A stretch of 64,000 nucleotides of DNA from Candidatus Aegiribacteria sp. (GTDB lineage: Bacteria > Fermentibacterota > Fermentibacteria > Fermentibacterales > JCC-6), in contig JAIOQY010000032.1 in the NCBI GenBank assembly GCA_021108435.1, forward strand, positions 1,890-65,889. Direction: 5' to 3'. Under the pieces are notes generated by a model. The model saw nothing but the letters and a program-made list of their open reading frames with translations, did no database searches and was not told the DNA's origin. A program made the position numbers and the translations under genes. Below are positions 12,259 to 29,146 of the stretch, piece by piece. Positions within the stretch are counted from its first letter, which is position 1; each line of letters starts with the position of its first letter.

Positions 12259-15234
12259 GTGACGGAACTGATCAAGGGAAGAAAAAAAAGGCTTCAGCTG
12301 AGGAAAATTGAATCCCGGCTGGACAGCCTTATGAAAACCAGAATTCGGAATATCCTGCTCATATGCAGTCTATATGATTACTATATGATAGAGGAGGATG
12401 GAAGACTTGGTGACCTTCTTGGAAACACCTACACGATAAGTGACGCAGGGAATATTCCTGTAATTACTCAGATATCAAATGCTGATACCGCCCTTGAACT
12501 TCTCGGAAAAGACGCGGGGCAAAGTATTGATCTTATCATCTGCATGGCAAGAATCGGAAGTATGGATTTTCCTGAATTCATCAGGAACATCAGGACTATT
12601 CGCTCCGATCTTCCGATTGTTGTACTGGCTCACAGCCCTGAGGAACTGTTGAGGCTGCAGGAAAAACACTGGACTGATGAAACCAACAGGGTTTTCACCT
12701 GGCTCGGGCGCGGAGAGACTGTACTTGGAATAATCAGACTTGTTGAGGATTCAAGAAACGCGGAGCATGACTGCGCTGAACTTGGAGCGCCCTGCCTTCT
12801 GCTTGTTGAGGATGATGTCCATTTTTATTCAAGATATCTGTACGAGGTTATGACCATAATACAGGAAAGAACCATAGAAATTCTCGACAGTTTTTCATCT
12901 TTTACAAAAAGAAATCTCAGAGCCAGAACCAGAACGAAAGTATTGATGGTTACCTCACTTGAGGAAGCTGAGAAGATACTGGAAACTCATGGAGACGCGC
13001 TCATCGGAGTGATCACCGATATGAAATTTCTCAGAAAAGGTGAACTGGATGAAAAAGCGGGAAAAATTCTTATCAGGAAGATAAAGGAAACTCTGCCGGA
13101 AATGCCCGTTATCCTGCAGACATCTGAATCAAAAGGGCAGAAGATCGCTGCCGCGCTGGGTGTTGAATACATTTCAAAGAACTCACCGGCGCTGATGAGC
13201 GATCTCAGAAAATGTCTTGCAGAGTCCTTCGGATTCGGCGATCTTGTCTTCAGAAATGATGATGGAGAGATCATCAGATCAGTTTCAAATATTAAAGAAA
13301 TGAATCAGCTGATCGATAAAATACCTGCTGAATCTGTTTATCGGAGTTTGAGTACCGGCGAGCTGGTGCGCTGGCTGAAGATACAGACAGAACTTGAACT
13401 CGCATGCAGGGTACAGGAAAATTTATCAATGAACGGAACCCCGCTCGAAGTCAGAACCGGACTGGTTGATATTTTCAGCGATTTCAACAAAGAGAGCAGG
13501 CGGGGATATGTGTCAAATTACAGCAGATCCTTCCATGAGGATCAGATTCTTTTCAGCAGACTGGGATCAGGTTCAATGGGTGGCAAAGGAAGAGGGCTGG
13601 CTTTCATTGATCGGGTGCTGGCAGCCAATTTTGATGAAAGCAGATTCAAGAAAGTACATGTCTCTGTTCCACGTACACTTATAATAACGACGGAGTTCTT
13701 CGATAAATTCGTGTATCAGAACAAATTGCTGGAATTTGCTCTTGAATGCGATAATGATCTCAGAATTTTAAGACAGTTTTTAAAGGCTGACCTTCCCCCG
13801 ACCATTCTCGGTGATATCAGAGACTATATCAGAGCAGTCCGGTCACCGATTGCAGTGAGATCTTCAAGTCTCCTTGAGGACGCGATGTATCAGCCATTCG
13901 CCGGCATCTACGCCACAAAAATGCTTCCGAATAATTCCCGGAGCGAAGACAAGAGATTCAATGAACTGGCGGATGCCATTAAATTCGTTTACGCATCCAC
14001 ATTTCTCAAAGCCGCGAAGTCATATATCACAGCGACGAACCACCGCGTGGAGGACGAGAAGATGGCTGTTCTTCTTCAGGAAGTTGTTGGCAGGAATTAC
14101 GGACATTCCTTCTACCCGCATTTCGCCGGAGTCGGCCGGTCTTATGATTTCTATCCAACCGGTTCCGCAAAACCGGAGGATGGAGTTGTAAATGTCGCGC
14201 TGGGACTTGGGAAATCGATTGTTGATGGTGGCGTATCACTTCGGTTTACGCCGAAGTTCCCGAGGGTTCTTCCTCAGTTCGCAACTCTCAAGGATATGAT
14301 GAACAACTCTCAGCACAACTTCTATGCTGTGAGTATGGGTCACTCCGAATGGAGTTCTTCCCTTGATGAGGATCAGTACCTGATTCTGCAGGATCCTGGA
14401 GTTGCGGAGAGTGATGGAACCCTGGAATACCTGGCTTCAACGTACGATGCGGCTAATGAGAGAGTACTGGATGGCATCACACGATCCGGACCCAGAGTGA
14501 TCAACTTCGCGCATGTACTCAAGAATAAAGTCTTTCCACTCGCCCCTCTTACTGATGTGCTGCTTACTATGGGCGAGGATGCTATGGGGTGTCCTGTAGA
14601 GATCGAGTTCGCGGTTACTCTCGGCAAAAAGCGACCCCTTCCAGCTGAATTCAGTCTGCTCCAGATAAGACCCATGGTGGTCAGTGACAGGCTGGTGAAA
14701 GTAGATCTGACCAATATGGAGAAAAAAGAACTCTTCTGCTGGACGGACACAGCGCTCGGTAATGGAATAATCGATACGATCAAAGATATTGTGTATGTAA
14801 AACCGGACCAATTCGATGCATCTAAAACCCGTGCAATTGTAAAGGAAGTGGACAAACTAAACAGAGAACTGAGCAATGAAGGTAGATCTTACATGCTCAT
14901 CGGACCAGGCAGATGGGGTTCAACAGACCCCTGGCTTGGTATACCGGTAACCTGGAGCCAGATTTCAGGAGTGAAGGTTATAATGGAGGCAAGCCAGCAG
15001 AATATGAATATCGATCCATCCCAGGGTTCTCACTTTTTTCAGAATATGACTTCTCTTGGCGTTGCTTATTTTACGGTGTCTCATGTCAAGGAAAGTAATT
15101 TTATCGACTGGTCATGGCTTGATTCTCAACCGGCCGCAGCCGATGGCGAACTCCTGCGTCACATAAGCCTTGAGTCGCCCGTAAAAGTAATGATTGATGG
15201 ACGGTCCGGTAATGGAGTAATGGTTAAACCATAA
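12259..15234 (+). CDS. receiver-domain-containing PEP/pyruvate-binding (PPDK_N) protein of unknown function
   Basis: Paralogue of 8274..10622: GGKGRGLA, AVRSSSLLEDAMYQPFAGIY, GPGRWGS, GSHFFQN. It is preceded by two receiver-like modules. The start is GTG at 12259; ATG at 12331 is an alternative. Confidence 0.75.
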   Translation: MTELIKGRKKRLQLRKIESRLDSLMKTRIRNILLICSLYDYYMIEEDGRLGDLLGNTYTISDAGNIPVITQISNADTALELLGKDAGQSIDLIICMARIGSMDFPEFIRNIRTIRSDLPIVVLAHSPEELLRLQEKHWTDETNRVFTWLGRGETVLGIIRLVEDSRNAEHDCAELGAPCLLLVEDDVHFYSRYLYEVMTIIQERTIEILDSFSSFTKRNLRARTRTKVLMVTSLEEAEKILETHGDALIGVITDMKFLRKGELDEKAGKILIRKIKETLPEMPVILQTSESKGQKIAAALGVEYISKNSPALMSDLRKCLAESFGFGDLVFRNDDGEIIRSVSNIKEMNQLIDKIPAESVYRSLSTGELVRWLKIQTELELACRVQENLSMNGTPLEVRTGLVDIFSDFNKESRRGYVSNYSRSFHEDQILFSRLGSGSMGGKGRGLAFIDRVLAANFDESRFKKVHVSVPRTLIITTEFFDKFVYQNKLLEFALECDNDLRILRQFLKADLPPTILGDIRDYIRAVRSPIAVRSSSLLEDAMYQPFAGIYATKMLPNNSRSEDKRFNELADAIKFVYASTFLKAAKSYITATNHRVEDEKMAVLLQEVVGRNYGHSFYPHFAGVGRSYDFYPTGSAKPEDGVVNVALGLGKSIVDGGVSLRFTPKFPRVLPQFATLKDMMNNSQHNFYAVSMGHSEWSSSLDEDQYLILQDPGVAESDGTLEYLASTYDAANERVLDGITRSGPRVINFAHVLKNKVFPLAPLTDVLLTMGEDAMGCPVEIEFAVTLGKKRPLPAEFSLLQIRPMVVSDRLVKVDLTNMEKKELFCWTDTALGNGIIDTIKDIVYVKPDQFDASKTRAIVKEVDKLNRELSNEGRSYMLIGPGRWGSTDPWLGIPVTWSQISGVKVIMEASQQNMNIDPSQGSHFFQNMTSLGVAYFTVSHVKESNFIDWSWLDSQPAAADGELLRHISLESPVKVMIDGRSGNGVMVKP

Positions 15235-15273
15235 CATCGCTGCAACAGTGCGAAAAAAGTGAGGGAGTTGCAT

Positions 15274-16140
15274 ATGCACGAGATCCTTTTTAAAGAGGAG
15301 ATTGGACCTGACATTCATCTATATCGGTTCCATGCGCCCGATGTGGCCAGGTTCAGAAAGCCCGGCCAGTTCGTGATCGTAAGGATCAGCGATGAGGGAG
15401 AGCGAATTCCAATTACTATCGCTGATGTAAACCATGACAAGGGTAGTATTACTCTCATCGTGCAGTCAGTCGGGAAGACAACTCTGCAGATGGCCGGGAT
15501 GAATGTAGGCGACTCAATTCCGGACATAACCGGCCCTCTTGGAGTTCCGACACATATTGAGAAAGTAGGGAACGTACTCTGCGTTGGTGGCGGTATCGGG
15601 ATTGCTCCATTGTATCCTGTTGCGAAAGCAATGAAGGATATCGGTAATCGTGTGATCAGCATACTCGGCGCGAGATCCTCAAATCTTCTGATTCTCGAGA
15701 AGGAAATGAAAGAAGTGAGCAGCGAAGTGCTTATCACAACGGATGATGGAACAAAGGGCCGCAAAGGACTGGTCACGGATGCCATCAAGGAACTTGTCAG
15801 TCAGGGTGAGAAATTCAATCTGTGTGTTGCTATGGGACCGCCAATCATGATGAAATTTGTCAGCCTTCTTACGAAAGAACTTGATATTCCAACTATTGTC
15901 AGCCTGAATCCTATCATGATCGATGGTACTGGCATGTGCGGAGGCTGCAGAGTAACTGTGGGGGGTGAGACGAAATTTGCCTGTGTTGATGGACCTGAGT
16001 TCGATGGACATCAGGTTGATTTCGACGAATTGATGAAACGTCTGACGATGTACTCATCGCATGAAAAACAATCCCTTGACCGTTATTCGTCAAAGACCGG
16101 CTGCAAGCTGGCCAGCGTGCTGGAGGGGGATCAGGAATGA
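15274..16140 (+). CDS. nfnA: NfnA-type ferredoxin-NADP+ oxidoreductase subunit (PyrK-like FAD/2Fe-2S)
   Basis: ORF 15259..16140. I moved the start to ATG 15274, with GAGGGAG 6 nt upstream. PyrK-like fold with a C-terminal GMCGGCRV...C cluster. It is coupled to the GltD-like gene by an ATGA overlap. Confidence 0.75.
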   Translation: MHEILFKEEIGPDIHLYRFHAPDVARFRKPGQFVIVRISDEGERIPITIADVNHDKGSITLIVQSVGKTTLQMAGMNVGDSIPDITGPLGVPTHIEKVGNVLCVGGGIGIAPLYPVAKAMKDIGNRVISILGARSSNLLILEKEMKEVSSEVLITTDDGTKGRKGLVTDAIKELVSQGEKFNLCVAMGPPIMMKFVSLLTKELDIPTIVSLNPIMIDGTGMCGGCRVTVGGETKFACVDGPEFDGHQVDFDELMKRLTMYSSHEKQSLDRYSSKTGCKLASVLEGDQE

Positions 16141-17600
16141 ACATCAAGGAAAGACTTAAAATTCCGCCAACCATGATGCCCGAGCAGGATCCCGCCGAGC
16201 GGATCACCAATGTGGAAGAGGTTCCCCTTGGTTATACCCCGGAGATGGCAATGCTGGAAGCGAAGAGGTGTGTTCAATGCAAAACTCCGTTCTGTGTGGA
16301 AGGATGTCCTGTCGGAATTGATATTCCGGGCTTTATCAAATTGATAGAGGACGGAGATTTTCGTGGGGCGATAAACAAGATGAAGGAGAAGAACCTCCTC
16401 CCCGCCATCTGCGGCAGGGTATGCCCTCAGGAGGAACAGTGTCAGCTGGTCTGCACAATAGGAAAGGCACAGAAAGATCCCTGCAAAGCCGTGATGATCG
16501 GGAAACTCGAACGGTTCGTAGCGGACTGGGAACGGGAACAGGGAGAGTACGATCTTCCGCCCGAAGTCAAACCTTCAGGCAGAAAAGTTGCTGTTATCGG
16601 TGCAGGGCCTGCTGGTTTGACGGTTGCCGGCGATCTGATCAGGTTCGGACATTCCGTGACAGTGTTTGAAGCGCTTCACAAGGCTGGAGGAGTGCTGGTT
16701 TACGGTATTCCCGAATTCAGGCTCCCCAAAGCAATTGTCCAGGGGGAAGTTGATTATCTCGAGAAACTAGGAGTCAATTTCCGATACAATTTCGTTGTGG
16801 GCAAGACAGCTCCGGTGAGTCAGCTTATCGAAGATTATGACGCAGTATTTATCGGGACCGGAGCAGGGCTTCCGCGATTCATGAGGGTCGATGGAGAAAA
16901 CCTCCTGGGTGTTCTATCCGCTAATGAGTATCTGACAAGGGCCAACCTGATGAAAGCTTACAGTTTTCCGGAAACCGATACGCCTATAGTAACAGGGAAG
17001 AAAGTAATCACTGTCGGCGGCGGAAACGTTGCTATGGACTGCGCCAGAACTGCACTGAGAATGGGCGCTGCCAGATCGCTTATCGTTTACCGCAGAGCAG
17101 AGGAACAGATGCCGGCAAGACTCGAAGAGATTCATCATGCCAGGGAAGAAGGAGTTGAATTCCACCTTCTGCAGAACCCCGTCAGTCTTATCGGGAATGA
17201 GGCCGGATGGATATCTGGAGCCAGACTTATTAAAATGGAACTGGGAAAACCTGACTCTTCCGGGAGAAGAAGACCTGTTCCCATTGAAGGGTCAGAGTTC
17301 ATCGAAGAGACCGACGCGCTGATTGTCGCGATAGGTAACAGTCCAAACCCTCTAGTACCGGCTTCATTCCCGGAGCTGGAGGTCACAAGATGGGGCGGAG
17401 TTGTTGTCAACGAGTTAACAGGTCAAACCTCTGTTCCAGGCGTTTTTGCCGGAGGTGATATTGTACTCGGGGCTGCGACGGTTATTCTCGCGATGGGACA
17501 CGGCCGGCGTGCAGCAAAGGCGATGAATCTGTATCTGAATTCCGGTCGCTGGGTCGATCTGGACAAAGCAATGGACCTGTCCAGAGCTGAAGTGCGATAA
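16137..17600 (+). CDS. nfnB: NfnB-type / glutamate synthase small-subunit-like NADPH oxidoreductase
   Basis: CVQCKTPFCVEGCP...CGRVCPQEEQC, VAVIGAGPAGLT and GGGNVAMDCART form the GltD family pattern. There is no GOGAT large subunit nearby. Confidence 0.8.
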   Translation: MNIKERLKIPPTMMPEQDPAERITNVEEVPLGYTPEMAMLEAKRCVQCKTPFCVEGCPVGIDIPGFIKLIEDGDFRGAINKMKEKNLLPAICGRVCPQEEQCQLVCTIGKAQKDPCKAVMIGKLERFVADWEREQGEYDLPPEVKPSGRKVAVIGAGPAGLTVAGDLIRFGHSVTVFEALHKAGGVLVYGIPEFRLPKAIVQGEVDYLEKLGVNFRYNFVVGKTAPVSQLIEDYDAVFIGTGAGLPRFMRVDGENLLGVLSANEYLTRANLMKAYSFPETDTPIVTGKKVITVGGGNVAMDCARTALRMGAARSLIVYRRAEEQMPARLEEIHHAREEGVEFHLLQNPVSLIGNEAGWISGARLIKMELGKPDSSGRRRPVPIEGSEFIEETDALIVAIGNSPNPLVPASFPELEVTRWGGVVVNELTGQTSVPGVFAGGDIVLGAATVILAMGHGRRAAKAMNLYLNSGRWVDLDKAMDLSRAEVR

Positions 17601-17683
17601 CCTGTGATGTTCTTGACTTTACTGAATGTGGAACGTAGCGTTCCCCCATTCATTCAAATATGCCCTAAAGAAGGAGGAATCCA

Positions 17684-18670
17684 TTGAAAGGCCGCGTACT
17701 TATTATTGACGATGAAGCTGAGATTCGACGCAATCTTACAGTAGGTCTTACTCAGGAAGATTACACTGCCGTTGCCTGTCCTGATGGTATTTCCGCGATT
17801 CATGAACTGAATCAGTCTCGAGAAAAGGGTGTAGCATACGATTATCTTATTACTGACATATTCATGCCGGATATCGATGGTCTGAAGATACTCAAGGTGA
17901 TAAAAAATCAGTATCCCGACCTTCCCGTTCTCGTAATTACGGGCTTCGGGGATGAGAGACTGATGATGACCGCGCTTTCAGAACAGAACACCGGTTATCT
18001 GGACAAGCCATTTGAAATATCGGATCTTGTAGAAGCTCTTGAGGAATTGTCTCCTGGGAAAACAGGAACCGAAACAGAAGAAGCTTCAGTTGATGACGGT
18101 ATGCGGGAATCGGTAAGCGCCTACCTGACCGTGAAGATAACGGAACCTGACAGAAGCATGGAGATATTTGATATCCTTTACAGGATGGATGGTATCCAGT
18201 CATGCGATGCTGTGAGAGGTGATTTCGACATAATACTTCTCGTTCAGGCTTCTTCGACTGATGAAATCCAGGAGATATTCAGCAGAGTCAAAGAACTGGA
18301 CGGCATTGAAGTGCTGTCCATGTCTCAAATTGAGCGTCCAAAGCTCGACAGAGATGTAGACTCCTTTATCGATACATACCAGAAGGCCGTCAAAAGGGAC
18401 GTTCAGGCAGAAGCCAGAAGACAGCCGGGAACGATGAGTTATATCATCGTTGACATAGATCCGGATGCGATTCAGCAGATATTTACAACGGTTTTCTTCA
18501 TCGATGAAGTTGTCTTCTGTGATGTTATCGAAGATGGTGCTAAGCTTGTCGGTATGATTACCGGTCATGGAGCCATGGGGAAAACTCCCCGGATCATTGA
18601 GAAACTGAGTCAGATTGATGGTGTTCTTAGAGTTCGTGAAGCCAAAGTAATAAATCTTATTGATGACTGA
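17684..18670 (+). CDS. response regulator receiver fused to two RAM (Lrp/AsnC ligand-binding-like) domains, no DNA-binding domain seen
   Basis: GGAGGA RBS with a TTG start. REC motifs are VLIIDDE, ITDIFMPDIDG, VITGFG and LDKPF. Two alpha-beta sandwich-like blocks follow: AYLTVKI...GDFDIILLVQASS...LDGIEV and SYIIVDI...KLVGMITG...IDGVLRV. Confidence 0.65.
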   Translation: MKGRVLIIDDEAEIRRNLTVGLTQEDYTAVACPDGISAIHELNQSREKGVAYDYLITDIFMPDIDGLKILKVIKNQYPDLPVLVITGFGDERLMMTALSEQNTGYLDKPFEISDLVEALEELSPGKTGTETEEASVDDGMRESVSAYLTVKITEPDRSMEIFDILYRMDGIQSCDAVRGDFDIILLVQASSTDEIQEIFSRVKELDGIEVLSMSQIERPKLDRDVDSFIDTYQKAVKRDVQAEARRQPGTMSYIIVDIDPDAIQQIFTTVFFIDEVVFCDVIEDGAKLVGMITGHGAMGKTPRIIEKLSQIDGVLRVREAKVINLIDD

Positions 18671-18797
18671 TGGCCGCTCAATCTTTTCAGGGTTGTCATC
18701 AGGATAATGAAATTAAACCGGTTTATGATCTGAATCTGTTGTAGCGGACCGAAAACGGAATTCGGGTCAATGAGAGGAAGTGGTGATCACGGCTACA

Positions 18798-19298
18798 ATG
18801 AGGGAGAATTTCAGTTACAGGCTATGGAGATATGACGGAGCACCCGGTGAGCTTATCCCTCTTCTGCAGTCTGCCCAGGAACACTTCGGTTACATACCCA
18901 TCCGCGCGATCAACTACATTTCCGGAGTAACCGGAATACCTGAGTCGGATATCTATGGAGTTATTACTTTTTACAGTCAGTTCAGACTTCGCCCCATGGG
19001 TAAGTACATTATTCGTGCGTGCGCCGGAACTGCCTGTCATGTATCCGGGGCTAAAATGATTATAGAGACTATCGAGGATGAACTCGGGATCGAAGTCGGT
19101 GATACATCGGAGGACGGGATGTACACTCTGAATACGGTAGCCTGCATCGGCTGCTGTTCTCTTGCGCCTGTTATAATGATTAATGACGAGACTTACGGTC
19201 GGCTTACACCTGCATCGCTGCGGAAACTTCTTCGTGAACATATCCGTAAGACCGGCGCAAAAGCCGATTCTGTCGTAGGAGCATCCTGCGGCGGTTAA
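18798..19298 (+). CDS. NuoE/HydC-like 2Fe-2S thioredoxin-fold subunit
   Basis: CAGTACHVSGA...CIGCCSLAPV is the NuoE-type 2Fe-2S motif. I chose the ATG at 18798; the ORF track start, GTG 18780, is an alternative. Confidence 0.8.
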   Translation: MRENFSYRLWRYDGAPGELIPLLQSAQEHFGYIPIRAINYISGVTGIPESDIYGVITFYSQFRLRPMGKYIIRACAGTACHVSGAKMIIETIEDELGIEVGDTSEDGMYTLNTVACIGCCSLAPVIMINDETYGRLTPASLRKLLREHIRKTGAKADSVVGASCGG

Positions 19299-19347
19299 AT
19301 GTTTCGATTTATGAAATCCATTTGTGAAAAACGTCTGGAGCGCTGAA

Positions 19348-21129
19348 ATGAAGACAATTGTAGTAGGTATGGGAACATGCGGTCTTTCCGCCGGGGCCAG
19401 GGTTGTGTTCGAAAAGCTGGAGGAGCTTGCAAGCGCGAATGCAGATATCTGCCGGCTGACAATATCCGGATGCATCGGCATGTGCTATCGGGAGCCTCTG
19501 GTGGAAATCAGGGATGGCGTCCGCAGAGTCTTCTACGGAGGAGTCACCACAGAATCCGCTGAAAAGATCTTTGAGAGCAATGTGCTGAATGATAATAGAA
19601 TTGAAGACAACAACCTGGTCTACGTTATCGAACGGGACGGATCGACTTCCGGTTCCGAAGCCGGTTTTCTTGACCTTCAGGAGAGAATAGTCCTCCGCAA
19701 TTGCGGTACGATCAATCCTGAGTCCATTTCAGATTACATGGAATCAGGCGGCTACGAAAGCCTGAAAGAGATTCTTTTCAAGTGGTCTCCTGAGCAGATA
19801 ATTCAGGAAGTGAAGAATTCTGGACTTCGTGGAAGAGGAGGAGCCGGATTTCCTACAGGTCTGAAATGGTCCTTTGCCGCCTCAAACGAAGCTGACAGAA
19901 AATATGTTGTATGCAATGCCGATGAGGGTGACCCCGGCGCGTTTATGGATCGTTCTGTTCTGGAGGGAGATCCTCACTCCGTTCTGGAAGGCATGATCAT
20001 CTGTGCCAGAGCGATCGGTGCGGACTTCGGTTATATCTACTGCAGAGCGGAATATCCCCTGGCTATTCACCGGCTTGAAATAGCACTGTCAGAAGCCAGA
20101 GAGAAGGGCTATCTCGGCAAAGATATACTGGGTTCCGGCTTCAATTTTGACATTAAAATCAAGCAGGGCGCGGGAGCGTTCGTCTGCGGAGAAGAGACAG
20201 CGCTTTTTGCCTCGATCGAAGGCGAACGCGGAATGCCCCGTATTCGCCCCCCTTTCCCAGCGGAAAAAGGTCTCTGGCAGAAGCCCACCAATAACAATAA
20301 TGTGGAAACCTACGCCAATATTCCATGGATAATAGCGAACGGCGCTGACGCATACGCTGCTTTCGGAACAGAGAAAAGTCCCGGCACCAAGGTTTTTGCC
20401 CTTGCGGGGAAAGTCGTTCACGGAGGTCTTGCCGAGGTTTCAATGGGAACCACAATAGATGACCTCGTCTTCAGGATCGGCGGAGGCATCAAGGAAGGCA
20501 GGGAGTTCAAGGCAGTACAGATGGGCGGTCCATCCGGCGGCTGTATTCCAGCCAGTCTGAAGAATACTCCCGTGGATTTCGAATCAATACCTGCCACCGG
20601 AGCCATCATGGGCTCAGGCGGAATGGTTGTAATGGACGATACGACCTGCATGGTCGAGATTGCAAGGTTCTTTCTGGATTTCACACAGAACGAATCCTGC
20701 GGTAAATGTACTTTCTGCAGGATCGGCACGCTCAGGATGCTTGAAATTCTTGAGAGACTGACCCGTGGTGAGGGACTTCCTGAAGACATAGAAAAACTTG
20801 AGCAGCTTTCAATTCAGATAAAGGAAGCAAGTCTCTGCGGGCTCGGGCAGACAGCTCCCAATCCTGTACAGACAACGATACGATATTACCTGGATGAATA
20901 TCTGGCACATATCAACGATAAACGGTGTCCGGCAGGAAGCTGCCTAGCTCTGGTCGAATTCAGTATCGATGCTGATAAGTGTGTCGGATGTACGATCTGC
21001 GCGAAGAATTGTCCGGTTGACGCAATCTCCGGAAAAGTCAAAGAACTACACGTTATTGATCAGGAAATCTGCGTGAAATGCGGCAAGTGCATTACAAGCT
21101 GCAATTTCAACGCAGTAATTACAAGGTAG
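19348..21129 (+). CDS. NuoF/HydB-like NADH-binding FMN/Fe-S flavoprotein subunit
   Basis: I moved the start to ATG 19348, with GGAG 7 nt upstream. N-terminal thioredoxin-like 2Fe-2S domain (GMGTCG...GCIGMC). Motifs GLRGRGGAGFPTG, NADEGDPGAF and SCGKCTFCR. Two C-terminal ferredoxin CxxCxxCxxxCP motifs. Confidence 0.88.
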   Translation: MKTIVVGMGTCGLSAGARVVFEKLEELASANADICRLTISGCIGMCYREPLVEIRDGVRRVFYGGVTTESAEKIFESNVLNDNRIEDNNLVYVIERDGSTSGSEAGFLDLQERIVLRNCGTINPESISDYMESGGYESLKEILFKWSPEQIIQEVKNSGLRGRGGAGFPTGLKWSFAASNEADRKYVVCNADEGDPGAFMDRSVLEGDPHSVLEGMIICARAIGADFGYIYCRAEYPLAIHRLEIALSEAREKGYLGKDILGSGFNFDIKIKQGAGAFVCGEETALFASIEGERGMPRIRPPFPAEKGLWQKPTNNNNVETYANIPWIIANGADAYAAFGTEKSPGTKVFALAGKVVHGGLAEVSMGTTIDDLVFRIGGGIKEGREFKAVQMGGPSGGCIPASLKNTPVDFESIPATGAIMGSGGMVVMDDTTCMVEIARFFLDFTQNESCGKCTFCRIGTLRMLEILERLTRGEGLPEDIEKLEQLSIQIKEASLCGLGQTAPNPVQTTIRYYLDEYLAHINDKRCPAGSCLALVEFSIDADKCVGCTICAKNCPVDAISGKVKELHVIDQEICVKCGKCITSCNFNAVITR

Positions 21130-21138
21130 GAGCGGCCA

Positions 21139-23100
21139 ATGGAAAAAATCAGACTGAAGATCAACGGTCAGGAAATAGAGGCCACTCCAGGGAAAACAAT
21201 TCTCGAAGTGGTTCAGGAGCAGGAACTCGATGACATACCCACTCTCTGTCACTCACCTGAACTCGAACCTTACGGTTCCTGTTTTGTATGCGTGGTCGAG
21301 GTAAAGGGAAGGGCGAATCTTGTTCCTTCATGCGCGACTCGAATAGCTCCGGACATGGAAATACTTACTCGAAGCGATAGAGTTCTGGCATCCAGAAAAA
21401 CGGCGCTCGAATTGCTGCTGTCCAACCATTATGCTGATTGCGTCTCCCCCTGTATGGAGGGATGCCCCGCCGGAGTTGACGCCCAGGGATATATTGCCCT
21501 TTCGGCGATGGGACAGTACAGGAAAGCTGTCGACCTCATTCGCGAAAAGAATCCCTTTCCAGCTGCCTGCGGAAGAGTATGCGTCCGCAAGTGCGAGGAC
21601 GTCTGCAGAAGAATGGATGTGGATGCGTCCGTTGCGATAAACAACATCAAGAGATTTGTCACTGATTCCCCCGAGGCTTACGCCACGAAACCGGTATGCG
21701 CCCCCTCTACAGGTAAAACAGCAGGGATCATCGGCGCTGGACCGGCGGGTCTTACCGCCGCCTGGTTCCTTGGAAAAAACGGGATCAAATGTGAAGTTTA
21801 CGAAGCCATGGATCGTACTGGAGGAATGCTGCGATACGGTATTCCCGAGTACAGACTTCCGGATGATGTTCTCGACAGAGAAGTGGAGTACATCTGCAGA
21901 ACAGGTACCACGATTCACTGCGGGGTTCGGGTGGGGAAGGACATCACGCTGGATGAGATCAGGGAAAAGCATAACGCTGTTTTCATCGGAGCAGGCGCAT
22001 GGACAGGCAAGGCAATGCGGGTTGAGGGTGAGTTTGATACCGAAGGCGTCGTAACCGGCGCTGACTTCCTGGTTGAAAAGGCAGATGATCCTCAGCCGCT
22101 GAAGGGTACTGTGGTTGTGGTCGGTGGTGGAAATACCGCCATGGACGCGGCAAGAACTGCCTGGAGACTGAATGCGGACAAGGTCATCGTTCTTTACAGA
22201 AGAACCAAAGCGGAGATGCCGGCTGACGCCATGGAAATTGAAGATTGTCTTGAAGAGGGCATTGAGATCATGGAGCTGGCCGCACCAATCGGTATCGTGA
22301 GGAAGGATGACAGACTCAGCGCTCTGCGCTGCCAGCGCATGAAGCTTGGTGAGCCGGATGATTCCGGAAGACGAAGACCTGTTCCACTGGAAGGTTCGGA
22401 ATTTGACCTTCCCTGTGACCTGGCTATTTCAGCCATCGGGCAGAATACAGTTCTTGATGGACTTGTAGAAACCAGAGATGGCGATGTGGACCTGACAAGA
22501 TGGAATACATACATTGCGGATCTCAGTACAATGGCTACGAACATTGAAGGAGTATTTGCAGGTGGTGATGCTGCGGATGATGGTCCTACCGTTGTTATCG
22601 ATGCTATCAGAGACGGTCAGAGAGCCGCCAGGGCAATAACAGCCTGGCTTGACGGCGTTCAGCCGAAACCTTACCCGTTCGTGGTTGCAAAGGAATTCTG
22701 GTCAAAGCCGGGGAAAGCTGAACTCGGCGATGTAAAGGAATCACCCAGACATGAAGTCCACCAGATAGATGTTGAAGACCGCAGAAACAATTTTACAGAG
22801 GTATCGAATGGTTTTGAGCCTGAGGATAACGAACATGAATGCGATAGGTGCCTTTCCTGTGGCTGCGTAAGATTCGATGATTGCGATCTCCGGCTCTATG
22901 CTGAGGAATATGGCGTTGATATGGAGTACTTCAAAGGCCATGTAAGAAAACACAAGGTTGATGACAGGCACCCTTACATATCCTACGATCCCAACAAATG
23001 TGTACTCTGCGCGAGATGTATCCGAACCTGCCGCCATCGGACTTGTGGGAAGAGGATTCAAAACCGAAATGCGCCCCGCTATGAACAATCCTCTTGTTGA
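21139..23100 (+). CDS. N-terminal part of a split Bfu/Stn-type large subunit: 2Fe-2S + GltD-like NADPH module + start of Fe-S domain
   Basis: 2Fe-2S motif CHSPELEPYGSCFVCVV...C. GltD-like motifs CGRVCVRKCEDVC, IIGAGPAGLTAA and GGGNTAMDAART. It ends inside CVLCARCIRTC and is followed by a nonsense tail. See the frameshift finding. Confidence 0.7.
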   Translation: MEKIRLKINGQEIEATPGKTILEVVQEQELDDIPTLCHSPELEPYGSCFVCVVEVKGRANLVPSCATRIAPDMEILTRSDRVLASRKTALELLLSNHYADCVSPCMEGCPAGVDAQGYIALSAMGQYRKAVDLIREKNPFPAACGRVCVRKCEDVCRRMDVDASVAINNIKRFVTDSPEAYATKPVCAPSTGKTAGIIGAGPAGLTAAWFLGKNGIKCEVYEAMDRTGGMLRYGIPEYRLPDDVLDREVEYICRTGTTIHCGVRVGKDITLDEIREKHNAVFIGAGAWTGKAMRVEGEFDTEGVVTGADFLVEKADDPQPLKGTVVVVGGGNTAMDAARTAWRLNADKVIVLYRRTKAEMPADAMEIEDCLEEGIEIMELAAPIGIVRKDDRLSALRCQRMKLGEPDDSGRRRPVPLEGSEFDLPCDLAISAIGQNTVLDGLVETRDGDVDLTRWNTYIADLSTMATNIEGVFAGGDAADDGPTVVIDAIRDGQRAARAITAWLDGVQPKPYPFVVAKEFWSKPGKAELGDVKESPRHEVHQIDVEDRRNNFTEVSNGFEPEDNEHECDRCLSCGCVRFDDCDLRLYAEEYGVDMEYFKGHVRKHKVDDRHPYISYDPNKCVLCARCIRTCRHRTCGKRIQNRNAPRYEQSSC

Positions 23101-24778
23101 AACAAGCTGCGTGAGCTGCGGAAACTGCGTTGATGCCTGTCCGACCGGAGCGCTTACGGTGAAATATCCATTTCCGGGAAGAGCATGTCTTGAGACTACG
23201 GATATACCCACACATTGTGGTTTCTGTTCTATAGGGTGCGAGATTTCTGTAAGGAAGTTCGGAGATGGAAGGTATTTTGTGGCTTCCAACGGAGTCCCCG
23301 GAGATTATCTCTGCAGGTATGGAAGGTTCGGCCATGAGCTTTTCATTAAGCAGGACAGACTGGTGCAGCCGGTCGTGAGAAGCGGCAACTCCTATAGTAC
23401 TGTTGGCTATGATGCTGCCTATGGCAGAATAGTAGAATCCCTGAAGGCTGCAGCTGAAAAATACGGACCTGCGAGTGTTGCCGTATTTGTATCACCGGAA
23501 CTGACAAACGAGGAATTGTACATTGCCGGCAGGATTGCCAGATCCGGGATTGGCACAAATAACATCGGCTCTCTTGCCAATATTTCGGGCGGTGGGCGTT
23601 CAGGTGTTCTCGATAAAGCTCTGGGCTTCACAGCATCTACTGCTGACAGAAAATGCCTCGGGGAAGCCGATCTGATTATCTGTAACAATACATCCATGGA
23701 GGCAGATCACCTGGTTCTTGCCGTCGAAGTGATACAGTCAGTCAAAAGTGGAGCCAAACTCATCGTATCAAACTCAATGCTTGATTCGACCGATCAGCAT
23801 CTTTCCAGTCTTGCGGTGGATCCCATGAGAGGTAGAGCCTCCATTTTCTGGAATGCGGTAATGCAGGTTCTTCTCGATAGTGGAGATATTAAGGGCACAT
23901 CCTCCTTCCTTTTGAACAGAGATGTGTCCATAGAAGTGGCTGCTGCCAGATCAGGTGTTGAGGAAGATAGCATTCTCGAAGCCGCAGAGCTGCTTAGAAA
24001 CTCCGGAAAAGTTGTCTTTATCCATAGTCCTGACCGCCCTCAGGATGCTTCTCCTGATGATACAGAGATATTCGCTGATCTTGCAATCATGCTCACAGCC
24101 GCGGGAAAGAAGACGGACATACTTCTCCCGAGACTGATCGCGAACAGCGCCGGTCTTGAAGTAATGGGAGCTGATCCTGCTTTTCTGCCGGGAAGAATTT
24201 CCACAGGGGGAGAACTGCCGGGCGCCTCTACGATTCAGGATCTGAGAAAGATCCTTGAGAGCGGTGACATCAGGGCCGCGCTCATTATCGGAGAAAACCC
24301 GCTTGAGTACAACAGAACCGGTTCCTGGTTCCAGAATGTGGAATTTCTTGCGGCAGTTGACTGGGCCGATACTGAGACAACAAGGTTTGCAGATGTCACG
24401 CTTCCGGGAAGTACTTTCCTTGAAACACCAGGAACGAGGTGTAATTTCGAGGGTGAGCTTACATCCTTCACGGGAGCTGTATCTCCGCCTTCCGGTATAA
24501 CATCTACGGAAGCGCTTACCTGCCTGGCAAAGGCATTCGGGCTTACTATCGCGGATGGTCTGTTCGATGAGATCGACAGGATAGTGAGGAAGAACCTTGG
24601 CGATCTTACCCGCTTCTACTGGAATACCGGCGAGAAGAGGAACTGGGATGGTAAAGGAGAACTGGTAGCGATTGAAGCAGATGTAAAAGCTACGTCTATC
24701 CTGCCCCCGATGACTCACAGTCAGGAATACAGGAAAGAGATCAGGGAAGTGGGAACGGAACGTTTCCGAGTTCTATGA
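22958..24778 (+). CDS. C-terminal part of the same split gene: ferredoxin-type cluster + NuoG/FdhA-like molybdopterin-oxidoreductase fold
   Basis: From about 23030 the +1 frame reads AAIGLVGRGFKTEM...SCVSCGNCVDACPTGAL, then THCGFCSIGCEISV...LCRYGRFG, the MopB N-terminal 4Fe-4S motif. The residues before about 23030 in this frame are probably not translated. Confidence 0.65.
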   Translation: MMTGTLTYPTIPTNVYSARDVSEPAAIGLVGRGFKTEMRPAMNNPLVETSCVSCGNCVDACPTGALTVKYPFPGRACLETTDIPTHCGFCSIGCEISVRKFGDGRYFVASNGVPGDYLCRYGRFGHELFIKQDRLVQPVVRSGNSYSTVGYDAAYGRIVESLKAAAEKYGPASVAVFVSPELTNEELYIAGRIARSGIGTNNIGSLANISGGGRSGVLDKALGFTASTADRKCLGEADLIICNNTSMEADHLVLAVEVIQSVKSGAKLIVSNSMLDSTDQHLSSLAVDPMRGRASIFWNAVMQVLLDSGDIKGTSSFLLNRDVSIEVAAARSGVEEDSILEAAELLRNSGKVVFIHSPDRPQDASPDDTEIFADLAIMLTAAGKKTDILLPRLIANSAGLEVMGADPAFLPGRISTGGELPGASTIQDLRKILESGDIRAALIIGENPLEYNRTGSWFQNVEFLAAVDWADTETTRFADVTLPGSTFLETPGTRCNFEGELTSFTGAVSPPSGITSTEALTCLAKAFGLTIADGLFDEIDRIVRKNLGDLTRFYWNTGEKRNWDGKGELVAIEADVKATSILPPMTHSQEYRKEIREVGTERFRVL

Positions 24779-24901
24779 CCCGCAAGCCCGCAAATTTTCT
24801 GTAGAACTGTCCGGGCTAAATCACATCTGGCGGAAACTTCTTTATTCTGTTAGTGTAAAATACATGTGTATTGTATAATGTAATGTTAAGGCTATTCTTA
24901 C

Positions 24902-27900
24902 ATGTTTTGCGGGAGTGTTGCTTTGGACAGGAATCTGAAAGACTTTGAATTTGTCTCTATCGGTACAGCGATAATATCCCTCGAAAAGAAAATTCTGGAC
25001 GCAGACGACCGTTTCTGTGAAATTCTCGGTTACAACCGTGATGAACTTCTTGAAATCTCGTGGAAAGAAATCTCATTTCCTGCTGATATTAAAAAAGAGT
25101 CTACTTATTTCAGATCTCTACAGAAAAGCAAGATAAACGAGTTTTCCATAGATAAACGGTTTCTAAATAAAACAGGAAAAATCGTTTTTACAAATATTTC
25201 GGTGAAATGTTTTCTATGTGGAAAAAGATCACCCGGTTATTATCTCATCTTAGCTCATGATATTACAGATCGTAAACATATGGAACAGAACCTTCATTCT
25301 CAGATTGAGTTAGAGAAGCTCATTGCTGCAATTTCAACAGGTTTTATCGTTTCACCGGGCGAGATCGACAGTAAAATTAACAACGCTTTGAAGGATATTG
25401 GGGAATTTTCAGGTATTGACCGCTGTTATGTCTTTCAATTTTATGATGATGGAAAGACGATGAACAACACACACGAATGGTGCAAAAAAGATATAGAACC
25501 ACAAATTAATATTCTCCAGAATATCTCAGTCGAGGAAGAATATCCTGATTTCACTAAAAGGATCAGGGCATTTGATATAATTCATGTTCCAGTTGTCGAT
25601 GACCTTCCTCCTGAAGCCAGTATCGAAAAAGTAAATTTTCAGAATTTGGGAATAAAATCACTTATCCTTGTTCCCATTGTTTATGCAAAGGTACTCATCG
25701 GATTTCTAGGGTTTGATTCGGTGAAGACAGAAAAAACCTGGAAAGAAAACGACATCAGATTACTGAAAATGATCGGTGAAATTTTCGCAAATGCATTAGA
25801 ATGCAACCGCACAGAAAAGGAAATTCAGAATCTTCAGGATTACAATCGGGGATTGATCGAGGTCAACCTCGACCCCCTGGTTACCTTTGATCCGGATGGA
25901 ATCATTCTTGATGTAAATCAGGCAACCATACAGGCTACAGGAAAATCCAGGGAGGAACTGATAGGTTCTGATATTACAGGCTATTTCACGAACCCGGAAA
26001 AAGCTCTTGAGGGCGTGAAATCGGTTTTCAAGTTTGAAGAGATACGTGATTACGAACTGGTTTTGAAAGCTGTTGATGGTTCGGAAACAGAAGTCGCCTA
26101 TAATGCTTCGGTCTTCAGAGATAATTCAGGTAAAGTCATCGGTGCCTTCGCAGCAGCACGGGATATAACCAGACGGAAGCAGGCGGAGGAAATACAGGAG
26201 GTACTATTTCAGATCTCACAGGCAGTAAGTGCCTCGGATAATCTGCAGGAGTTCCTTGAGATTGTACATCAACAATTCGGGAGACTTGTAGATACAAGCA
26301 ACTTCTATGTTGCTCTGTACGACGAAGAAAATGATTTGTACTCATTTCCCTGTATTTTTGATGAATACGATAAGAATCCTGATTTCAGCAAACAGCAGAT
26401 GAAGAAAAGCCTGACGGATTATGTTCGCAGAACCGGCAAATCCCTTCTTGCTGATGATAGAATTCATCAGGAACTCATCCGAAAGGGTGAGGTCGAAATG
26501 GTTGGTAAGCAATCACCGATCTGGCTGGGTGTTCCCCTCAGAACTTCGCATGGAGTCATTGGTGTTGTTGCTGTTCAGAGCTATTCCCAGAGTTCGCTCT
26601 ATTCGATGCAGGATCTGGAAATGATGTCGTTTGTTGCTGAAAACATATCCCTTGCAATTGAACATAAAAAAGTTGAGGAAAAACTTGTCAGATATCACAG
26701 TCATCTCGAGGAACTGGTCAGGAAACGAACTGAGGAGCTGACTGAAACCAATCGTAAACTTGAAATGAAAATAAGCGAACATAGGCAGACTGAAGAAGCA
26801 CTGAGGGATTCAGAGCGAAGGATGTCTGAAATCATAGACTTCCTTCCCGATGCCACGCTTGTTGTGAACAGGGATTCACAGGTTATCGCATGGAACAAGG
26901 CAATGGAAGAGATGACAGAAGTTCCAGCCGATGAAATGCTGCGTAAAGGTGATTATGAATATGCAATTCCTTTCTACGGCAGGAGAAGGCCAATCCTTAT
27001 CGATAGAATCTTTGACTCTCACTCGGAAACGGACAATCTTTACACTACTATCAGGCAGGAGCTTAACACTCTTGTCGGTGAAGCTTTTACCCCCGCCCTT
27101 GGCGGTCAAGGTAGATATCTCTACGCTACAGCCAGGGCTCTTTATGATTCTCAGGGCAAGCTTGCCGGAGCTATCGAATCCATTCGCGACATCACTGAAC
27201 GAAGAAAAGTCGAACAGGCCCTTGCTGAATCGGAAAAACGTTATCGAACGCTTCTCGTTAATCTTCCTGTAGGTGTATTCCAATCCACAATTGACTCTGA
27301 AGGACATGCGATTTCGTGTAATATCTCACTGGCAAGAATGCATGGATTCGACAATCCTGAAGAGATGGAAAAAGTCAGTTTGACAGACATGTATGTAAAC
27401 CCGGATGACAGGAAGAGGTTTGTGGAAGCAGTCTGTTCAAATGACTCGGTTGCTAACTTTGAAGTCCAGCTGAAGCGTATTAACGGGGGGAAGTTCTGGG
27501 GTTCCATGACAGCACGAGCAGTAAGGGATTCTGATGGACAGATTAACTGCATTGACGGTATTCTGGAAGACATCACTGAACGAAAACTGGCAGAAGAGGA
27601 ACTGCAAAAATCAGAAGAGCGCTTTCGCGATCTTGTTCTCAGTACATCAGACTGGGTCTGGGAAGTCGATACTCAGGGACGTTATACCTACTGTTCTGAA
27701 CAGGTTGCAAATGTACTTGACTACACCGCTGAAGAAATTATTGGGAAAACACCTTTTGATCTGATGCCACCCGAGGAAGGCGCTCGAATACGCGGTATTT
27801 TCAATAATATCGTCGAAAACCTTGCGCCTATCGTTGAGCTGGAAAACTGGAACATCAGGAAGGATGGTCGAAAGATCTGTCTTCTTACAAATGGTGTACC

Positions 27901-29146
27901 CATGTTTGATGAAACCGGCTGTCTTATCGGTTACCGTGGCCTGGACCGGGATATCACCAACCGTAAGGAAGCCGAGGCAGAAAAACAGAAACTGGAAAAA
28001 CAGATACTGCAGACGCAGAAACTGGAAAGCCTTGGTGTGCTGGCAGGGGGAATAGCACATGATTTCAACAATCTGCTTGTAGGTATTCTTGGCAACGCTG
28101 ACCTGGCACTGGACTCACTCTCCCCTGTTTCACCCGCCTGTCCCAACATACACGAGATCGAAACCGCAGCTAAACGGGCAGCTGAGCTTTCCCGCCAGAT
28201 GCTGGCATACTCCGGCAAGGGTCAGCTTATCGTCGATGTCATCAGTCTCAATGATGTTGTTAAGGAAATGGCGCACCTGCTTGAAGTTTCAATTTTAAAA
28301 AATGTTGTCCTTAAATTTAATCTGAGTGATGATCTACCAGCTGTTGAAGTTGATGTAACACAGATTCGACAGGTTATAATGAACCTGATTACAAACGCCT
28401 CTGAAGCGATTGGTGAAAAAAGCGGAGTCATTTCTATCACAACCGGAATACTGGAATGCGACAGCAATTACTTTGACGGAACCTATCTTAAGGAGGATAT
28501 GAAGGAGGGGATATACGTTTATCTTGAGATCGCTGATACCGGTTGCGGTTTGAATATCGAAACACAATCAAAGATTTTTGATCCCTTCTTCACCACTAAA
28601 TTTACCGGTCGTGGTCTTGGACTCGCTTCTGTTCTCGGTATAGTTCGCGGTCACGGTGGTTCGCTCAAACTATACAGTGAAGAGGGGCATGGTTCTACCT
28701 TCAAAATTCTGCTTCCGGCAGTTGAAAGGCGCAGGATATCCCTTGAAAAAGAAACTCCAGTAGATATGAGCTGGAAAAGCAGCGGGACTATCCTTCTGGT
28801 CGATGATGAAGAAACAGTACGGACTGTAGGCGAAACGATGCTTCAAAGGCTTGGTTTTACCGTGCTAACTGCAACGGATGGTCGAGATGCAATTGATATT
28901 TATCGCAAGAATTCTGATGAAATCAGGTGCGTTATACTCGACCTGACAATGCCGCATATGAGTGGTGAGGAAGCCTTCATTGAACTCAGGCGTATAAGGA
29001 ATGATATTAAAATTCTTCTTTCCAGTGGTTACAACGAGCAGGATGTTATTCAACGATTCTCCGGCATGGATATTGATGGCTTCATACAGAAGCCGTACAG
29101 GTTTGCAGATCTTGTCTGCGAATTACGAACAATACTTGAGAAATAA
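24902..29146 (+). CDS. hybrid sensor histidine kinase (multi-PAS, two GAF, HisKA, HATPase_c, C-terminal receiver)
   Basis: 1414-aa ORF. H-box IAHDFNNLL. ATPase motifs EIADTGCG and GRGLGLA. Receiver motifs LLVDDEE, VILDLTMPHMSG and IQKPY. Repeated PAS-like blocks ending in DITERK/DITRRK. Confidence 0.9.
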   Translation: MFCGSVALDRNLKDFEFVSIGTAIISLEKKILDADDRFCEILGYNRDELLEISWKEISFPADIKKESTYFRSLQKSKINEFSIDKRFLNKTGKIVFTNISVKCFLCGKRSPGYYLILAHDITDRKHMEQNLHSQIELEKLIAAISTGFIVSPGEIDSKINNALKDIGEFSGIDRCYVFQFYDDGKTMNNTHEWCKKDIEPQINILQNISVEEEYPDFTKRIRAFDIIHVPVVDDLPPEASIEKVNFQNLGIKSLILVPIVYAKVLIGFLGFDSVKTEKTWKENDIRLLKMIGEIFANALECNRTEKEIQNLQDYNRGLIEVNLDPLVTFDPDGIILDVNQATIQATGKSREELIGSDITGYFTNPEKALEGVKSVFKFEEIRDYELVLKAVDGSETEVAYNASVFRDNSGKVIGAFAAARDITRRKQAEEIQEVLFQISQAVSASDNLQEFLEIVHQQFGRLVDTSNFYVALYDEENDLYSFPCIFDEYDKNPDFSKQQMKKSLTDYVRRTGKSLLADDRIHQELIRKGEVEMVGKQSPIWLGVPLRTSHGVIGVVAVQSYSQSSLYSMQDLEMMSFVAENISLAIEHKKVEEKLVRYHSHLEELVRKRTEELTETNRKLEMKISEHRQTEEALRDSERRMSEIIDFLPDATLVVNRDSQVIAWNKAMEEMTEVPADEMLRKGDYEYAIPFYGRRRPILIDRIFDSHSETDNLYTTIRQELNTLVGEAFTPALGGQGRYLYATARALYDSQGKLAGAIESIRDITERRKVEQALAESEKRYRTLLVNLPVGVFQSTIDSEGHAISCNISLARMHGFDNPEEMEKVSLTDMYVNPDDRKRFVEAVCSNDSVANFEVQLKRINGGKFWGSMTARAVRDSDGQINCIDGILEDITERKLAEEELQKSEERFRDLVLSTSDWVWEVDTQGRYTYCSEQVANVLDYTAEEIIGKTPFDLMPPEEGARIRGIFNNIVENLAPIVELENWNIRKDGRKICLLTNGVPMFDETGCLIGYRGLDRDITNRKEAEAEKQKLEKQILQTQKLESLGVLAGGIAHDFNNLLVGILGNADLALDSLSPVSPACPNIHEIETAAKRAAELSRQMLAYSGKGQLIVDVISLNDVVKEMAHLLEVSILKNVVLKFNLSDDLPAVEVDVTQIRQVIMNLITNASEAIGEKSGVISITTGILECDSNYFDGTYLKEDMKEGIYVYLEIADTGCGLNIETQSKIFDPFFTTKFTGRGLGLASVLGIVRGHGGSLKLYSEEGHGSTFKILLPAVERRRISLEKETPVDMSWKSSGTILLVDDEETVRTVGETMLQRLGFTVLTATDGRDAIDIYRKNSDEIRCVILDLTMPHMSGEEAFIELRRIRNDIKILLSSGYNEQDVIQRFSGMDIDGFIQKPYRFADLVCELRTILEK

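Follow-up and report, generated by a model that had tools for sequence, protein, structure and literature searches.

Nfn-type transhydrogenases connect the NADH, NADPH and ferredoxin pools of anaerobes, and their two kinds, NfnSL (NfnAB) and Nfn-Bfu (StnABC), are presented as alternatives. What, then, should be made of a locus that carries genes for both, one of them apparently broken? The question is raised by a 64,000-nucleotide stretch of DNA from Candidatus Aegiribacteria sp. of the phylum Fermentibacterota (GenBank assembly GCA_021108435.1, contig JAIOQY010000032.1, positions 1,890 to 65,889 of the forward strand), here called the window. It contains an nfnAB pair, a gene for a protein with REC and RAM domains, and the trio stnABC. 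We conclude that this locus very probably encodes two complete, mechanistically different NADH-dependent reduced-ferredoxin:NADP+ oxidoreductases and that the break in the reading frame of stnC is a technical gap of 20 nucleotides (nt). This reading draws on sequence homology, on the domains and motifs of the products, on synteny and on finding the gene intact in the population. The genes concerned are as follows, in window coordinates.

15259/15274-16140, forward strand: nfnA (NfnS), PyrK-like FAD/NAD(H) subunit (Pfam FAD_binding_6, NAD_binding_1, DHODB_Fe-S_bind).
16137-17600, forward strand: nfnB (NfnL), GltD-like subunit (Pfam Fer4_20, Pyr_redox_2).
17684-18670, forward strand: protein with a REC domain and an Lrp/AsnC-type RAM domain (Pfam Response_reg, 1e-24; AsnC_trans_reg, 7e-8).
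18780/18798-19298, forward strand: stnA (= NfnC/BfuC), NuoE-like (Pfam 2Fe-2S_thioredx, E 3e-50).
19324/19348-21129, forward strand: stnB (= NfnB/BfuB), NuoF-like (Pfam Complex1_51K, NADH_4Fe-4S, C-terminal 2x[4Fe-4S] domain).
21139-24778, forward strand: stnC (= NfnA/BfuA), large subunit, present in the window as two frames (21139-23100 and 22958-24778).
23030..23031, forward strand: point at which 20 nt (TGCGAAGGTTCTTCCGATCT) are missing and the stnC frame switches, from alignment with relatives and with an independent assembly.

The upstream pair (15274-17600) is assigned by homology as an ordinary, canonical NfnAB/NfnSL. The start of nfnB overlaps the stop of nfnA as ATGA (16137-16140). 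The best PDB matches of nfnA are the small subunit of Pyrococcus furiosus NfnI (5jca_S, 2.5e-100) and Thermotoga maritima NfnA (4ylf_A, 2e-94), with a weaker match to NfnII (5vj7_B, 8e-64) and a far weaker one to PyrK (1e-19). Its segment DGTGMCGGCRV aligns with DGTGMCGACRV of both 5jca_S and 4ylf_A, and the Asp/Cys3 [2Fe-2S] motif is present; the aspartate of the DGTGMCG motif is a ligand of the [2Fe-2S] cluster. NfnB best matches T. maritima NfnB (4ylf_B, 2.5e-169 over residues 11-472) and P. furiosus NfnI-L (5jca_L, 9.5e-151), and it is GltD-like, with two [4Fe-4S] clusters and FAD and NADPH sites predicted from its Pfam domains and the 4ylf_B match. Compared with T. maritima NfnAB (4YLF) and P. 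furiosus NfnI (5JCA), both subunits are full-length homologues in which the DGTGMCGxC motif and translational coupling are kept. The difference from these systems is that nfnAB here stands in tandem with a Bfu-type Nfn.

We assign the downstream trio, from its ranking of PDB scores and a diagnostic GltD insertion, as an ordinary member of the StnABC/NfnABC family (Type 1 Nfn-Bfu), which has already been purified and solved. The three genes are closely spaced, with gaps of 49 nt between stnA and stnB and 9 nt between stnB and stnC. The stnA translation carries the cysteine motifs CAGTACH...CIGCC of a thioredoxin-fold [2Fe-2S] subunit. The stnB product consists of an N-terminal thioredoxin-like domain, an FMN/NAD(H) core and a C-terminal region with CxxCxxCxxxC twice (2x[4Fe-4S]), and it aligns from end to end with the B chains of solved Nfn-Bfu enzymes (9n5u_B, 9bov_B and 8oh5_B; E ~1e-247, 826 bits), with 61% identity to Sporomusa ovata StnB. 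Scores fall in order from Nfn-Bfu B (826 bits) through NiFe-Bfu B (742), FeFe HydB (629-717) and FdsB (431) to Nqo1 (394). The residues D195, A201, M203 and F281 (Tsi numbering), named as a Bfu signature for the Thermococcus sibiricus enzyme (PMC12018979), are kept in stnB as NADEGDPGAFMDR and GAGAFVCGEE.

The large subunit divides into two halves. Its 21139-23100 frame carries Fer2_4, Fer4_20 and Pyr_redox_2, and 22958-24778 (the +1 frame) carries Fer4 and Molybdopterin (PF00384). The N-half is collinear with solved large subunits over residues 1-623 (9bov_A, 6e-173; 8oh5_C, 9e-157), at identities of 44% to S. ovata StnC and 47.5% to Caldicellulosiruptor saccharolyticus NfnA. These values (44-47.5%) fall within the 37-49% identity that Kremp et al. 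give in their table of Stn clusters (PMC7483475). The second Rossmann motif is of the NADPH type (GGGNTAMDAARTA...LYRRTKAEMPA) and agrees with those of NfnB and of the proteins from S. ovata and C. saccharolyticus; the pattern GGGNTAMD...YRR..EMPA aligns with the proteins of these two species. All the cluster motifs expected of StnC align as well: the four cysteines of the [2Fe-2S] domain, two GltD-type motifs, CxxCxCx5C, two CxxCxxCxxxC and the Fdh-type CxxCxxxC...C.

The C-half (residues 632-1106) is more diverged, matching 9bov_A at 1e-47 and 8oh5_C at 6e-45; true FdsA chains match it at ~1e-34. The Mo-ligating Cys386/His387 of Rhodobacter capsulatus FdsA (6tg9_A, RVCHSPT) are Ser/Gly in stnC (NISGGGR), and Pfam gives no match in stnC to Molydop_binding (PF01568) and none in 21139-24778 to the H-cluster domain PF02906. 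By these substitutions the FdhF/NuoG-like domain is predicted to be catalytically dead.

One local feature of the N-half differs from the solved enzymes. Residues ~140-154 of stnC (window 21556-21600) read ACGRVCVRKCEDVC, with the first cysteine of the GltD/NfnB-type cluster motif kept (ACGRVC). The S. ovata and C. saccharolyticus proteins instead have SIGKIC and SIGRVC here (SIGK/RxC). Cluster ligation at ACGRVCVRKCEDVC may differ from that in the solved enzymes.

The S. ovata enzyme (8OH5/8OH9; PMC7483475, PMC10482914) offers the closest point of comparison in layout, since its subunits, gene order and order of large-subunit domains are the same as here. Kumar et al. divide the 1172-residue S. 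ovata StnC into a [2Fe-2S] domain (1-101), a GltD-like NADPH/FAD module (102-565), further clusters and then a catalytically inactive FdhF-like domain (683-1172) (PMC10482914). The present large subunit is somewhat longer, at 1219 residues, and its C-terminal scaffold has diverged (E ~1e-45). The setting differs too: S. ovata is an acetogen and the present host an uncultured fermenter of the Fermentibacterota, in which the REC/RAM gene and a complete nfnAB precede the cluster. The best-scoring solved homologues are C. saccharolyticus NfnABC (9BOV/9BP5; PMC11829005) and 9n5u, the latter with a shorter large subunit of 963 residues. We take 9N5U/9N5V to be the archaeal T. sibiricus NfnABC of PMC12018979, from the fit of the numbering of its B chain (9n5u_B), which is deposited as 'NfnB'. 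Enzymes of this class are characterised as NAD+-dependent NADPH:ferredoxin oxidoreductases with FMN, FAD and ~42 Fe per protomer.

A preliminary description of this DNA had recognised a standard NfnAB pair with an ATGA overlap at 15274-17600, and the Pfam domains and the 4ylf and 5jca matches agree with it. Its NuoE-like, NuoF-like and long split genes at 18798-24778 are likewise present with their domains, and the peptides that it quoted (IIGAGPAGLTAA, RMKLGEPDDSGRRRPVPLEGSEF and KMELGKPDSSGRRRPVPIEGSEF) are all found in the translations. Its four-part reading of the long gene is the StnC architecture of PMC10482914, and the cluster motifs align with those of the S. ovata and C. saccharolyticus enzymes. 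It had also reported no in-frame TGA and no C-terminal dinucleotide-binding barrel, and we find neither the one (in the restored 1219-residue frame described below) nor the other (no PF01568). The proposal of a Bfu/Stn-type complex holds, the subunits being full-length homologues of solved StnABC/NfnABC, but the label 'candidate' can be dropped for a family already purified and solved. NfnAB and StnABC are both well-characterised kinds of enzyme, and neither is new.

The only point that goes beyond what is known, and a mildly new one, is the conserved tandem of both families with the REC/RAM gene between them. The order nfnA-nfnB-REC/RAM-stnA-stnB-stnC is kept in ~13 fetched loci (L011-L013, L015-L019, L021, L023, L030, L031 and L034). 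In 17 related genomes, 10 from the organism's own genus (family f1) and 7 from the sister family f3, nfnA and stnC lie on one contig, 7.5-8.7 kb apart. Among public loci, the nearest, at 95-97% protein identity, come from metagenome-assembled genomes labelled Candidatus Aegiribacteria, and the more distant ones from Ca. Sabulitectum and Fermentibacteraceae, in marine sediment and cold-seep samples.

Wherever the flank of a Fermentibacterota locus is long enough (L011-L035), the REC/RAM gene lies directly 5' of stnA, with or without adjacent nfnAB. Six loci (L025, L027-L029, L032 and L035) have REC/RAM-stnABC without an adjacent nfnAB, and linkage to stnABC is tighter for the REC/RAM gene than for nfnAB or the glutamate dehydrogenase (GDH) genes. 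Two genomes of the same genus (G002 and G006), each 97-98% complete, contain stnC and have no nfnA at E <= 1e-40; going by these two genomes, some lineages have lost NfnAB while retaining Stn.

This arrangement is unusual relative to the literature, which presents an either/or distribution. Kremp et al. describe Stn and Nfn as 'almost mutually exclusive' in acetogens (PMC7483475), and Schut et al. report that Thermococcaceae carry Nfn-Bfu or NfnAB, 'but not both', and place Nfn-type BfuB in Bacteroidetes, Synergistetes, Firmicutes and Euryarchaeota (PMC9304861). A possible though doubtful refinement of the two-enzyme reading is that NfnAB and Stn are not equivalent, one of them working with another partner or in another direction (for example an NfnII/Xfn-like NfnAB), and that the REC/RAM protein controls Stn. 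A tandem order kept across two families, set against the either/or pattern of the literature, would fit such a difference, as would the REC/RAM gene remaining beside stnABC where nfnAB is absent. P. furiosus also retains the paralogues NfnI and NfnII, which have been studied separately (PMC12506544). But NfnA and NfnB are closer to the NfnI type than to NfnII (5vj7), and the signature residues of Stn are all canonical.

Does the locus nevertheless encode one working enzyme and one relic? The window lacks 20 nt directly behind ...CGAACCTG (23030), where a DNA alignment gives the relatives CGCGAAGGTTCTTCCGATTC or a variant of it. An uninterrupted stnC frame of 1221-1234 residues is present in 29 of 31 related genomes, and every relative's gene is intact. 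The best-matching sequencing run, a marine sediment metagenome (X1), holds 98% of the sampled words and has an independent assembly in Logan. Its contig (25.9 kb, depth 28.8) carries TGCGAAGGTTCTTCCGATCT behind 23030 and, these 20 nt aside, differs from the window over 15200-24900 (9.7 kb) by a sole substitution, T>C at 24721.

In the X1 assembly of the same population, which has the 20 nt, stnC is a single open reading frame. Restoring them gives one frame of 1219 residues with no stop and no in-frame TGA, whose product reads ...CVLCARCIRTC-AKVLPIS-AIGLVGRGFKTEM... (at the junction, CIRTC-AKVLPIS-AIGLVGRGF). Related strains in two further runs (X3 and X4) likewise have 20 nt at 23030, and the deleted form was seen in none of the four runs examined. 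The dominant genotype in the population has an intact stnC. A programmed frameshift at 23030 was considered and rejected, as the relatives and the independent assembly carry 20 additional nt.

The missing 20-mer ends exactly in TCTTCCGATCT (11 nt), which we take to be the 3' end of Illumina TruSeq adapters. This adapter-like end suggests a trimming-related assembly error; we treat it as a lead, with the cause of the gap unproven. Systematic excision of adapter-like sequence by a contamination screen was rejected, since that k-mer is not underrepresented in the genome and another three adapter-like sites of 11-12 nt (C10:21055, C20:23151 and C29:20245) are intact. Taken with the alignments, the split of stnC is almost certainly an assembly gap and not biology. 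The case carries a practical warning, namely that a 20-nt assembly gap with an adapter-like end makes an intact gene for 1219 residues resemble a pseudogene.

We regard it as quite improbable that stnC has truly, and recently, become a pseudogene in this strain, with a Stn redundant with NfnAB and decaying. The frameshift in the window would be expected of such a gene, the near mutual exclusion of Nfn and Stn (PMC7483475) would fit redundancy, and the opposite loss is known from the two genomes that keep Stn without NfnA. Against this, the lesion is single, stnA and stnB are intact and the gene is whole in all relatives. The X1 assembly, otherwise one substitution away from the window, has the 20 nt, the deleted form is missing from the examined runs, and the adapter-like end of the 20-mer hints at a technical cause.

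Several observations weigh against the reading of two complete enzymes. The window sequence is itself broken at stnC, and Logan contigs drop rare variants, so that a minority deleted allele could be hidden. The metal at B2/B5 (Zn or [2Fe-2S]) varies among solved enzymes, a difference that the present sequence cannot tell apart. A search for transcript evidence found no RNA runs holding the gene. A promoter and terminator scan of the locus returned promoter-like sites no commoner than in shuffled sequence; the same scan found no terminator-like site at any gene end and is uninformative on operon structure.

Since NuoE-, NuoF- and NuoG-like domains and the Molybdopterin fold are common to NAD(P)H-linked formate dehydrogenases, hydrogenases and the N-module of respiratory complex I, and FdsA chains do match the C-half, the trio might be taken for one of these, but we give that almost no credence and consider all three refuted at sequence level: the catalytic Cys/His pair is Ser/Gly and Molydop_binding is not found, the large subunit has no H-cluster domain and the genome's only match to Fe_hyd_lg_C (PF02906) is on contig C34, the NuoF-like subunit has Bfu-specific additional domains at both its N- and C-termini, and the only NuoH-type (PF00146) gene of the genome sits in an Mbh/Mrp-like cluster on contig C5 without NuoEFG, leaving no complex I in the genome that would need the stn NuoEF-like genes. 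The preliminary description had named two findings that would speak against its Bfu/Stn assignment, a phylogeny grouping the large subunit with true formate dehydrogenases or hydrogenases that retain catalytic residues, and NuoEF-like genes serving a complex I encoded elsewhere. Neither objection applies: the FdhF-like domain has no Cys/Sec-His pair, and in place of a complex I the genome has an Mbh/Mrp-type group-4 NiFe cluster alone.

Upstream, the window also has two genes of the GDH family.

6884-8167, forward strand: GDH-family gene 1, context (Pfam ELFV_dehydrog, ELFV_dehydrog_N).
10654-12006, reverse strand: GDH-family gene 2, context (Pfam ELFV_dehydrog, ELFV_dehydrog_N); its neighbourhood to nfnA is confined to the closest relatives, L015 and L031.

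The preliminary description had seen these two neighbours correctly and had proposed a dedicated redox-balancing island for glutamate oxidation. The latter idea is weakly supported because GDH adjacency is limited to the closest relatives (L011-L013) and to L015 and L031, and does not extend across the clade that keeps nfnAB-REC/RAM-stnABC; it is not seen in the Sabulitectum-type loci with this arrangement. On the other side, stnC is directly followed by a gene for a 1414-residue hybrid histidine kinase (24902-29146), which carries several PAS and GAF domains as well as a receiver at its C-terminus. This kinase was not detected 3' of stnC in the relatives' loci.

Searches of the genome's own contigs serve here for physiological inference only. 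Rnf is encoded on contig C39. Contig C34 (18214-21646; L052) encodes a [FeFe]-hydrogenase of 591 residues. Beside it are a NuoE-like gene and the gene for a NuoF-like protein, which is short (393 residues) and is without the N-terminal and C-terminal Fe-S domains of bifurcating HydB. A second Bfu module on C32 (1-2847; L050) comprises a NuoE-like gene, a full-length BfuB of 620 residues and a BfuA whose Fe-S N-terminus is joined to an aldehyde:ferredoxin oxidoreductase (AFOR_C domain) and which is cut by the contig end; the module is reminiscent of WOR-Bfu enzymes (PMC12318220). A third on C82 (7047-12762; L051) has a full-length BfuB of 635 residues. Next comes a BfuA of 978 residues or more, again cut by the contig end, in which FAD domains like those of HdrA are joined to an N-terminus with NuoG-type [2Fe-2S]/Fe-S motifs. 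The Mbh/Mbx/Mrp-type group-4 NiFe cluster on C5 (44074-53000; L049) contains NuoH-, NuoB-, NuoC- and NuoD/NiFe-large-like genes and antiporter-like subunits, and is preceded by a PyrK-like gene.

If the two enzymes work as their solved homologues do, they would carry out the same overall chemistry by different routes; activity, cofactor loading and physiological direction are predicted from homology. NfnAB would oxidise NADPH at its bifurcating FAD, located in the GltD-like subunit. From there one electron would go to ferredoxin via two [4Fe-4S] clusters and the other to NAD+ via the PyrK-like subunit, with its [2Fe-2S] cluster and FAD. In StnABC, the large subunit would oxidise NADPH at the FAD of its GltD-like module, which is not a bifurcating one. 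The electrons would then run along an Fe-S chain, held by the dead FdhF/NuoG-like scaffold, to an FMN/Fe-S bifurcation site, where the NuoF/NuoE-like core would reduce NAD+ and ferredoxin. Both reactions would be reversible.

Alongside the GDHs, Rnf and hydrogenases of a fermenter, these enzymes would probably turn NADPH reducing power into NADH and reduced ferredoxin, or work the other way for biosynthesis. The pools between which electrons would be shuttled are NADPH (for example from GDH), NADH and ferredoxin, the last feeding hydrogenases or Rnf.

A further proposal concerns the gene between the two enzymes. NfnAB and StnABC may be non-redundant, and for that reason retained side by side throughout an order-level clade, and may divide the labour, as NADPH-forming and NADPH-consuming enzymes or by ferredoxin partner, with the REC and double-RAM protein sensing an amino-acid-type ligand and switching Stn directly. 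We put this forward as a tentative and rather unlikely scenario. Direct switching is proposed because the REC/RAM protein has no DNA-binding domain as judged by Pfam. If true, electron-bifurcating enzymes would have in the REC/RAM protein their first dedicated regulator. The fixed tandem of both kinds of Nfn in an uncultured sediment phylum, separated by a small signalling protein, offers a natural system in which to ask whether their jobs are identical.

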